Source: a virus
Taxonomy: Duplodnaviria > Heunggongvirae > Uroviricota > Caudoviricetes
Reading direction: 5' to 3' (one strand)
Length of the DNA stretch: 64,000 bases
IMG/VR virus record: IMGVR_UViG_3300042554_002438
This document shows, in pieces, positions 21,915 to 27,430 of this stretch (position 1 is its first letter; the number at the start of each line of letters is the position of its first letter). Below the pieces are notes generated by a model. That model saw only the letters and a list, made by a program, of their open reading frames with translations. It did not search any database and was not told the DNA's origin. The translations under genes and the position numbers were made by a program.

Positions 21915-22328
21915 TTAAAATACCACTCCAAGTATGATTGTTAGTATAACCAATACCCCTCCACCTATAATAGCACCGTTTCTTTGGTTCTTTAACGTAG
22001 TGATGTTTTTATTCAAATCTTTTATTTCGGATTCCCTCTCCACAATCACACTAGATTTTAATTGAATTATGCTGTCTTTTCTGACAACTAAATTAGAATA
22101 GTCTAATATAATGCTATCTTGTTCTAAGCCTTTTTTTGTTAGTATTGATATGGTATCTCTGGCAACCAATAATTTTGCCTGAGTTAATTTATAATCCGAA
22201 CGCATAATTAATGCGTTTTTTAATGTGGCGCATGGTACCACACAATTTGTATCATTTAAAACTGTTTGTGAATTCCCTGGCAATATCTGTGTTAGACATA
22301 GAATTAATACGATTAATATCTTTTTCAT
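21915..22328 (-). CDS. putative spanin-like envelope protein (signal peptide, coiled coil, C-terminal TM)
   Basis: MKKILIVLILCLTQILP..., coiled coil, GAIIGGGVLVILTIILGVVF; overlaps the upstream gene by 77 nt. Confidence 0.55.
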   Translation of the reverse strand: MKKILIVLILCLTQILPGNSQTVLNDTNCVVPCATLKNALIMRSDYKLTQAKLLVARDTISILTKKGLEQDSIILDYSNLVVRKDSIIQLKSSVIVERESEIKDLNKNITTLKNQRNGAIIGGGVLVILTIILGVVF

Positions 22329-22590
22329 GTTGTTTTTTCTCTTTATCTAATTTATTTTTTAACTGTGATAACTCAATTTCGTATACGGCAATTTTCTCGT
22401 TTCTTTTTTCAATTGATTTCTTTAATGAATCTGCAACAAGTTCTTGTTTTGTTATTTGAGTATTTAAAGAATCCACTTTTTTATCATAGTGTGATGTGTC
22501 GATCAAACCCTTATTATGGTTATCAATTGCTAAGTATATTATAATACCAACTAAAGCTAAAATTATAAGATATGGTACGTATTTTTTCAT
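22252..22590 (-). CDS. putative inner-membrane spanin-like protein
   Basis: N-terminal TM followed by a long coiled coil. Confidence 0.55.
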   Translation of the reverse strand: MKKYVPYLIILALVGIIIYLAIDNHNKGLIDTSHYDKKVDSLNTQITKQELVADSLKKSIEKRNEKIAVYEIELSQLKNKLDKEKKQHEKDINRINSMSNTDIAREFTNSFK

Positions 22591-23109: not shown

Positions 23110-23712
23110 TCAATTGTTTATTAGTTTAGTTAATTTTTCGAAGTCAAATGCTGGTGTCAAATCATAGTGATTTTTACTGAAATTACTTCTGTTGAGTATT
23201 CCCTTGAAATTCATTGGTTTATGTGCAAGAACATTATTACCGATGAAATTTTTTTCAATTGAGTATTCTATACATAAATAGTTAATTAATTCAAATAGTA
23301 CAGTCATTTGCTCATCAGTGTAATCCGCCCATAGCTTTTTACCACGCCAATTTGTTTCAATAACGGCGCCTTCATATCTAATTCCACGCCAATCTAAATA
23401 AGCATCAGTTTTTTTGTGATATTCAAGCCACCCAACATTTTCTATCGCAATTGGTATAACAGCTTTATTTATATCATCTTTATCAAATAAGGGGCTATAA
23501 TTTTTGGGATTATAGTGTTGGTATAAAATACCAGACCTACTTATTGTGTAAGCTGGAATTTTATTGTATTTTTTATTAAATCTCAGTTTTAATTTTGTGA
23601 TAAAGTCATCTATCGGATAACCAGTGTTTAACAAGACTATTTGTTTCTTATTTTGTCTTGTTTTAAACACTAAGCCATCATTAATTACAAAATCAGTGTT
23701 GATGTTCACCAT
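23110..23712 (-). CDS. N-acetylmuramoyl-L-alanine amidase (Amidase_2/PGRP fold), possibly degenerate
   Basis: KKQIVL..T, AYTISRSGILYQ, IAIENVGW, DYTDEQ...L..L...LC, DLTPAFDF. Confidence 0.75.
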   Translation of the reverse strand: MVNINTDFVINDGLVFKTRQNKKQIVLLNTGYPIDDFITKLKLRFNKKYNKIPAYTISRSGILYQHYNPKNYSPLFDKDDINKAVIPIAIENVGWLEYHKKTDAYLDWRGIRYEGAVIETNWRGKKLWADYTDEQMTVLFELINYLCIEYSIEKNFIGNNVLAHKPMNFKGILNRSNFSKNHYDLTPAFDFEKLTKLINN

Positions 23713-23753
23713 CTTTAAAAACTCTTATAGTATCTATAAAGTTTATTGTTGGC

Positions 23754-23808
23754 GGTGTTTCGACTAACTCTGGTTGAATTTCCGTTGGTGTTTCGACTAA
23801 CTCTGGTT
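23754..23808. repeat. 22-bp perfect direct repeat with a 33-nt period
   Basis: GGTGTTTCGACTAACTCTGGTT at 23754-23775 and 23787-23808; encodes PELVETP twice in the -1 frame of the upstream gene. Confidence 0.9.
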
Positions 23809-23814
23809 CAGACG

Positions 23815-24555
23815 TTAGTTTTTTTTTTCGTCATCCTCAGTAGTTTGGATAACATCTTGAATAGTCTCTTGATCATTTAAAATTTCTGGTTCTATGACCT
23901 CGCTTTGAGGTTCTATTTCATTTATTAATTCTTCTCTGTACTGCGAATTAGCCAATGCGGTTGGTTCGTCTGAATCGTTATAGTTTTCTTCTCCGTATTT
24001 TTCAACATTATCTTTTCTAATTTTTTCAGCGATATCCCAAACTTTTTGATTAACCTTAACTTTATTTGATTCTACAAGTTTCTCATCAACCTGAGTCGGT
24101 TCAGTTACCTGTTCCTCATTTGGTTTAATATAATCAACGAGCGATTTAATAAAACCTAAAGCTACTAACGGTAAAATTGCGCCAGACACTATCGATAGAA
24201 TTCTTTTTTGAAAAATCGGTTCTTCCTCAACCAAACCAAATAATTCAATCCACGATTGATAATTTTCTAGGTGAACATAGGCAAAATAAGTATTACCCAT
24301 TGCCTGCATGGCTGTTAAAACAAAAAATAACGCCCATACAATACCCTTGTTCATTTTTTGTAATGCTATAATTGAAGCAAGAGATGCTGCGGCACCAACC
24401 TCAAACGCAATTGCTAAAGTGATTGCTAACCAGTCTGGATTAGATAGTTTGAAAAAATCAATTACGTGTATTGTTGATATGACGGATACCATCACATATA
24501 GCAATACAAACGTACCTATTATAAAATTCCTGGTTAATTTATTCTCACCCTTCAT
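23815..24555 (-). CDS. four-TM membrane protein with a Glu/Pro-rich tail; possible -1 frameshift extension to 23693
   Basis: Four hydrophobic helices; ends GAA AAA AAA AAC TAA (A10 run). Confidence 0.8.
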   Translation of the reverse strand: MKGENKLTRNFIIGTFVLLYVMVSVISTIHVIDFFKLSNPDWLAITLAIAFEVGAAASLASIIALQKMNKGIVWALFFVLTAMQAMGNTYFAYVHLENYQSWIELFGLVEEEPIFQKRILSIVSGAILPLVALGFIKSLVDYIKPNEEQVTEPTQVDEKLVESNKVKVNQKVWDIAEKIRKDNVEKYGEENYNDSDEPTALANSQYREELINEIEPQSEVIEPEILNDQETIQDVIQTTEDDEKKN

Positions 24556-26632: not shown

Positions 26633-27430
26633 TTATAAGAGTTCAAATAATTCCTTAGAATAGAACCTTAATTTTTTAATCGCCTTTTCTTTTATCTGGC
26701 GAACACGCTCTTTTGTTAGGTTAAGTTCCTCAGATATATCCTGTAACGTCAAGGGCTCCCCATCTAAACCAAAATACTTGGTTACAACGTATTGCTCAGA
26801 ATCCGTTAAATTAGATAAAACTATTTTAAGTCTATTAATTAACGAATCATGATCGTCAGAAAAAATCAAATCGGGTCTTTTCGAATTAACATCCTCAATC
26901 ACATCGTACATCGAATTACCTTCATCGTCAAAAGGTGCGTCTAAGTATGTTATTGTTGGTAAACCAAGAATACTGGTTGGTGTTTCGTTCTCGTCCGCAC
27001 TATACTCTTTTGGAGTCTCTTTGCGCAACTTATTCATTTCGTTAATAATGTTCACTGGTAGACGAATTGCCCTAGAATTTTCGTGTAAAGATTGCAACAT
27101 ACTTTGTTTTACCCACCAAACCGCATAAGAAAGGAATCTAACGTTGGTTTGGTCATAATTGTAGCGCTCTGCGGCTTTAATTAAACCATAATTACCCTCA
27201 GATATCAAATCAGATAATGATAAACCTTGATTCTGATATTGTTTTGCCATTGATATGACAAATCTTAAATTAGAATAAATTAACAAATCTTTCGACTTTT
27301 GGCATCCAGTTTTTATTTTATCAATTAGTTTAAATTCTTCCTCACGTGTTAGTGCTGGGTATTTTCTAACATCATAAAGGTAAAGATTAATTTCGGATTG
27401 GTCAATCCAGTGCGAGGTATCTTTGATCAT
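26633..27430 (-). CDS. rpoD: sigma70-family RNA polymerase sigma factor, Bacteroidota sigmaA-like (no region 1.1)
   Basis: NLRFVISMAKQYQNQGLSLSDLISEGNYGLIKAAERY...RFLSYAVWWVKQS...IRLP; region 4 TLQDISEELNLTKERVRQIKEKAIKKLR. Confidence 0.95.
   Translation of the reverse strand: MIKDTSHWIDQSEINLYLYDVRKYPALTREEEFKLIDKIKTGCQKSKDLLIYSNLRFVISMAKQYQNQGLSLSDLISEGNYGLIKAAERYNYDQTNVRFLSYAVWWVKQSMLQSLHENSRAIRLPVNIINEMNKLRKETPKEYSADENETPTSILGLPTITYLDAPFDDEGNSMYDVIEDVNSKRPDLIFSDDHDSLINRLKIVLSNLTDSEQYVVTKYFGLDGEPLTLQDISEELNLTKERVRQIKEKAIKKLRFYSKELFELL

Follow-up and report, generated by a model that had tools for sequence, protein, structure and literature searches.

A probable recoding site at the end of a phage membrane-protein gene and its counterparts in related loci

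In a window of 64,000 nt (the whole stretch of phage DNA that was analysed), a gene for a membrane protein ends directly after a run of ten A's, and behind this stop the -1 frame stays open up to and into the following gene. This arrangement raises the question of whether the gene yields a single protein, or whether some of its products continue in the -1 frame, and, if they do, whether the frame is changed by the RNA polymerase or by the ribosome. A sequence-only reading of the region had proposed long and short forms of the membrane protein, with a homopolymer error as the alternative. The genes of the region all lie on the minus strand, and the features that bear on the question are the following:

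23815..24555, minus strand: zero-frame ORF of the membrane protein, short form (246 aa; the tail ends DDEKKN, followed by TAA)
23830..23853, minus strand: upstream RNA hairpin (7-bp stem GUUAUCC/GGAUGAC, 10-nt loop, -7.8 kcal/mol), 1 nt before the run
23819..23828, minus strand: putative A10 slip site (T10 on the plus strand), with the in-phase heptamer A_AAA_AAC inside it and the zero-frame stop directly after it
23796..23819, minus strand: downstream 10-bp hairpin, starting at the last A of the run (ACUAAC..GUUAGU)
23693..23818, minus strand: -1 frame extension, 41 sense codons (23696-23818) and a TGA (23693-23695)
23754..23808, minus strand: 22-nt direct repeat in two copies (23754-23775 and 23787-23808), 33 nt apart
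23110..23712, minus strand: amidase-like gene (200 aa), whose ATG lies 20 nt inside the long-form frame

The A10 run and the frame behind it

The elements that had been read from the letters were all found again: the membrane-protein ORF closes with GAC GAA AAA AAA AAC TAA, including the A10 run and the heptamer in phase, the 41-codon -1 frame encodes the peptide noted before and ends at the TGA, and both copies of the 22-nt repeat with its 33-nt period are perfect. The extension had also been described as filling the gap to the amidase-like gene; it spans this gap and runs 20 nt past the ATG (23712). With the extension the protein has 287 residues instead of the 246 of the short form, and the added part consists of a linker rich in Pro and Glu, followed by the C-terminal motif INF-x3-I-x-VF-x-DGE of what we call class A (see below). 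In the -1 frame the repeat encodes PELVETP twice; its second copy has diverged in the relatives G001/L089, and it is a recent in-frame duplication in the linker (seen by repeat search, missed by TRF). No ORF of at least 30 aa starting with ATG, GTG or TTG was found in the frame of the extension, which therefore cannot be a separate gene. The +1 frame past the stop of the membrane gene is open for two codons only, and a scan for consensus terminators and promoters gave nothing at the A10 site. The run is the sole homopolymer of at least 10 in the 64-kb window; by chance, about two T-runs of at least 10 per 64 kb are expected at 31% GC, and an open frame of 41 codons has a chance of about 3% (our arithmetic from base composition). 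The features of the window taken alone are thus not beyond chance, and their significance rests on the comparison with relatives.

The N-terminal domain of the membrane protein, about 145 aa long, is conserved and has four predicted helices (taken from an AF2 model of the in-frame homologue P0064, which has low confidence, pLDDT 49). Behind it lies a variable, acidic tail, which by the positive-inside rule, as a reading of the sequence, is predicted to be cytoplasmic. The protein has 4545 homologues at E<=1e-10. Searches of Pfam, PHROG and NCBIfam gave no match and thus no holin family, and its neighbours in the Atlas were unnamed viral clusters only.

Relatives and the tails of the family

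The nearest virus record (G001) is 90% identical to the window over 1701 nt without indels and has the same A10 run, the same TAA and the same open -1 frame of 41 codons. The run is identical in G001/L004 and in L089, and the A10, the TAA and the open -1 frame are also present in a separate metagenome contig. The window and G001 agree in every letter over a 53-nt block that takes in the upstream hairpin, the run and the stop, but not in the flanks. The exact protein of the window was recorded from 19 contigs of up to 298,837 bp, and the records of at least 89% identity, which form six protein clusters (P0001-P0006), all stop after the run; no in-frame variant was found among them. The proposed alternative is a sequencing or assembly error in what is truly one continuous ORF, and homopolymers are error-prone on some platforms. 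However, the same length and frame recur in independent assemblies of different projects (IMG/VR, JGI, ENA, NCBI, Logan), the pattern is also present in lineages that are 55-90% identical, and mistakes would not all go in one direction. An error is hardly credible under these circumstances, and within the reach of sequence data it is excluded.

We gathered 262 loci from IMG/VR and JGI metagenomes, 123 of them distinct; scans seeded with L013, L021, P0046 or the amidase-like protein alone added few new loci. A run of A9-A11 situated at most 17 nt before the stop was present in 18 of the 123 distinct loci (A9 in eight, A10 in nine, A11 in one), and the same -1 shift is needed in all 18. In each of the 16 run-bearing loci that could be read to the end, the -1 frame runs on for 26-123 codons, whereas in the 105 distinct loci without an A-run the median after the stop is 10 codons, and the long -1 frames that do occur there are the next gene only.

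Many other homologues encode the tail in a single frame. Among the best 120 of the 4545 proteins, 48 close, as the protein of the window does, with EKK[KN] and 0-2 further residues (median 245.5 aa), and 52 have the class-A end in frame, in the motif ..ENYPVYD..IENIMVFTKDGGQ (median 287 aa, which is the predicted length of the long form of the window). Homologues that are simply in frame had been named as an observation that would speak against recoding. They do exist, in the 52 proteins just mentioned, but they do not count against it: they carry in frame the C-terminal motif that the window has in its -1 frame, and the extension is therefore coding. A quick tree built on the N-terminal domain contained a clade with 7 of 7 members shifted, and its class-A clade comprised nine shifted and 15 unshifted rows.

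The extensions behind the runs end in C-terminal motifs of the family that unshifted homologues have in frame. The class-A motif of the window is in frame in the unshifted loci L005, L007, L040 and L062 and in further loci found via the amidase-like gene. The class-B extension ends in PGTGNRYFKRG and holds a TSP3_bac repeat (bacterial, calcium-binding) above the Pfam threshold; this was seen in L123 (1806-2165) and L126 (2274-2642), whose -1 extensions follow an A9 run and are about 120 codons long. The class-C extension ends in PQIMPGVN, which is in frame in other members. TSP3 domains are usually extracytoplasmic, and their presence in class-B tails is at odds with the cytoplasmic location that charge predicts for the tail.

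In class B, the class with the long extensions, dN/dS of the extension was 0.05-0.07 over about 120 codons. For class A it was 0.15-0.48 among close relatives (distant, saturated pairs gave noisy values around 1 or above), and for the extension of the window against that of G001 it was 0.40, indicating mild constraint on few sites. As judged from these substitution patterns, the extensions are under purifying selection. A limit on the motif comparison is that the last codons of the extension overlap the next gene, so that the apparent conservation of the motif could be inflated. Taken together, the intact -1 frames, the family motifs and the low dN/dS values indicate that the extension is real coding sequence, that translation enters it only through a -1 shift at the run, and that selection has kept this arrangement. 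We therefore regard the A10 run as very probably a real recoding site, and the long and short forms that the sequence-only reading had suggested are supported by the relatives.

Two further explanations have to be weighed against these data. The split gene could be a relic, cut short by a frameshift mutation and followed by a frame that decays without being translated; the in-frame homologues, from which a split form could derive, and the mild constraint in the lineage of the window agree with this. However, a decaying frame would hardly be intact in 16 of 16 readable loci, always in the -1 direction and always at an A-run of at least 9, and neither the strong constraint on the Pfam-domain-bearing class-B extension nor the clade in which all seven members are shifted fits with it. 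We consider a relic very unlikely. Alternatively, replication slippage at the DNA level might switch the gene from A10, which gives the short form, to A11 or A8, which would give the long one, and back; homopolymers of this size are also unstable in replication. The unshifted class-A homologue L275, with an in-frame A8 (1205-1220, ..ETKKKNYNK..) some 15 codons ahead of the C-terminal motif, could be counted in favour of such phase variation; this A8 may also be an evolutionary intermediate between the in-frame and the shifted forms. Against phase variation, all 18 distinct run loci and every record of the lineage of the window are in the 'off' state, and none has an in-frame run of at least 9, which makes a DNA-level switch highly improbable.

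Transcriptional slippage or ribosomal frameshifting

If the run is a recoding site, the gene most likely makes proteins of 246 and of 287 residues, and, judging from the layout of the site, the frame is probably switched mainly by transcriptional slippage. Faithful A10 transcripts would give the short form, with translation stopping at the TAA right after the run. In some transcripts the RNA polymerase would slip on the T10 template and insert one A, helped perhaps by the nascent hairpin that lies 1 nt upstream of the run, and the resulting A11 mRNAs would be translated normally into the -1 frame. The long form so made would consist of the linker and the conserved C-terminal motif behind the membrane domain, with the architecture and the median length of the single-frame homologues. 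Runs of 9 A or T slip efficiently, and a nascent hairpin adjoining a slip motif stimulates slippage (PMC5009743).

The hairpin is not a constant companion of the run. In 7 of 12 lineages a hairpin with a folding energy of -4.1 kcal/mol or lower ends 0-3 nt upstream of the run, whereas the rate among control windows is 22% (binomial p 0.007); in the remaining five the upstream hairpin was absent or weak. The hairpins that abut the run in different lineages have unrelated sequences. Around the window, the hairpin region is identical in the three closest sequences, so that there is no covariation to be seen there.

Programmed -1 ribosomal frameshifting on A_AAA_AAC would leave the mRNA unchanged and yield a nearly identical product, the junction reading ..KKN-LTS.. 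rather than the ..KKK-LTS.. expected from slippage. An in-phase X_XXY_YYZ heptamer is present at every locus, the zero-frame stop follows 0-3 codons after the site in all lineages, and in the window the 10-bp hairpin has the last A of the run as its first base. For a ribosomal shift the heptamer would suffice, and the usual spacer to a stimulator is 5-9 nt. The 10-bp hairpin, however, has no spacer at all, some of its pairs are lost, uncompensated, in the 90% relatives, and it was not found in the other lineages, so it is probably incidental. A conserved structure 5-9 nt downstream was not found either; downstream folding was no stronger than in controls (p 0.21) and had no constant spacing across lineages. 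Moreover, all 18 runs are 9-11 long, with no case of a shifted A7 or A8. A ribosomal shift is thus a possible but rather unlikely route, and transcriptional slippage is favoured by the lack of runs shorter than 9, by the upstream hairpins that abut the run in 7 of 12 lineages and by downstream folding that resembles the controls. The short form is not essential to the family, as many homologues have a single frame.

The end of the long frame might connect the shift with the following gene. Zero-frame ribosomes stop 103 nt upstream of the start of the neighbour, and only those that make the long form arrive there, ending at the start codon of the amidase-like gene; slippage may therefore set the output of the neighbour. 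The sequences show the site, its conservation and the coding nature of the extension; whether the polymerase or the ribosome makes the shift, in what proportion the two forms arise and whether the neighbour is coupled to them is inferred.

The neighbouring gene and known systems

The amidase-like protein scored 22.4 bits with Pfam Amidase_2, below the cut-off of 26, and gave no match in the PDB by sequence, even with a profile. Its AF2 model (pLDDT 87.7) had the amidases LysC (6ssc) and AmpD (2y2b) and phage endolysins as top matches in Foldseek, with a probability of 1.00 and TM values of 0.56-0.73 against 6ssc, 2y2b and 6srt. At the presumed positions of the zinc-binding His in amidases of this kind, Asn is seen in the alignment of the family (LLNTG, GILNRS), and the protein may be a non-catalytic wall-binding protein. 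It has no signal peptide and is predicted to be cytoplasmic. A homologue follows 24 of 24 class-A loci, with an overlap of 8-18 nt, but none of the 99 other loci.

Across the loci L004-L264, each of the five tail classes goes with a downstream gene family of its own, and the five families are unrelated to one another: class A occurs with the amidase-like gene, class B with small proteins including Hsp20, and classes C, D and E with proteins of 377, 222 and 262 aa, respectively. A family match was obtained for the amidase-like gene and Hsp20 only. As a candidate explanation, the downstream genes of the other classes might have been distant relatives of the amidase-like gene; comparisons with hhalign and Pfam say that they are not.

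The sequence-only reading had spoken of a lysis-like cassette. As for the neighbour, the Amidase_2 fold bears this out, but the membrane protein matches no holin family. With four predicted helices and a neighbour of this fold, a holin role for the membrane protein would be possible; however, the other tail classes adjoin unrelated, unnamed proteins, and since these are not related to amidases, a general holin-endolysin pairing is unsupported. Two small genes lie further downstream (21915-22590, minus strand). The product of one (112 aa) has an N-terminal membrane helix and a coiled coil and gave a weak match to the Rz-like LysB (E 0.003, which falls far short of the cut-off); that of the other (137 aa) has a signal-like N-terminus and, at the C-terminus, a membrane helix. 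Both may be lysis genes of the spanin kind.

The pairing of tails and neighbours would fit a tail that acts together with the product of the adjoining gene, and shared descent could give an equal pattern. A more far-reaching, and rather doubtful, idea is that of a modular membrane tether, in which the four-helix domain would be the anchor and the C-terminal peptide an exchangeable part docking the product of the next gene; in many lineages the slip rate might then set both the number of docking-competent anchors and, via the stop/start overlap, the dose of the partner.

Systems of this general kind are well known. In dnaX, one gene gives two products with a common N-terminus at an A-rich site with a stop nearby, by slippage on A9 in Thermus thermophilus and by a -1 ribosomal shift on A_AAA_AAG in E. 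coli; the shifted product is shorter there, whereas it would be longer here. Closer in layout are tssM1 of C. rodentium and tssM of Yersinia pseudotuberculosis (Gueguen et al. 2014, PMC4256274), membrane-protein genes cut by a stop just after a poly-A (A11 in tssM1), in which slippage adds A's so that short and full-length forms are made, and of which single-frame homologues exist elsewhere. However, these are bacterial secretion genes in single species, whereas the present site, as read from sequence, is spread over many lineages and several tail types of a phage family. In Shigella spa13, slippage adds an extension of 112 aa; its coding end reaches into the start of the following gene, the expression of which is affected (Atkins et al. 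2016, PMC5009743); spa13 belongs to a type III secretion system and to another protein family, and for the phage gene the coupling is deduced from the 20-nt overlap. The IS630 of Roseiflexus (Penno et al. 2015, cited in PMC5009743) has a nascent stem-loop directly 5' of the slip motif, in the layout of an intrinsic terminator; according to that description, its U5C5 motif does not slip without the hairpin, whereas A10 should slip alone, with the hairpin in about 7 of 12 lineages. We found no description in the literature of recoding in this membrane-protein gene family. The class of mechanism is thus well known, and the site in this phage gene family is the new part.

The consequences concern annotation as well as biology. 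Gene callers stop at the run and shorten the protein in thousands of metagenomic records (the 48 of the best 120 homologues mentioned above are annotated to end there), so that protein databases lack its conserved C-terminal part; the complete protein is recovered once the site is recognised. The loci also offer a natural and widely conserved set of candidate hairpin and poly-A slip sites in phages thought to infect Bacteroidota, together with a possible dosage link between the membrane protein and its amidase-like neighbour. The phage that carries the gene is an uncultured, giant phage from freshwater, and about 2 kb upstream of the membrane gene it encodes a sigma-70 family factor (26633-27430, minus strand), whose regions 2 and 4 are well above the Pfam thresholds.
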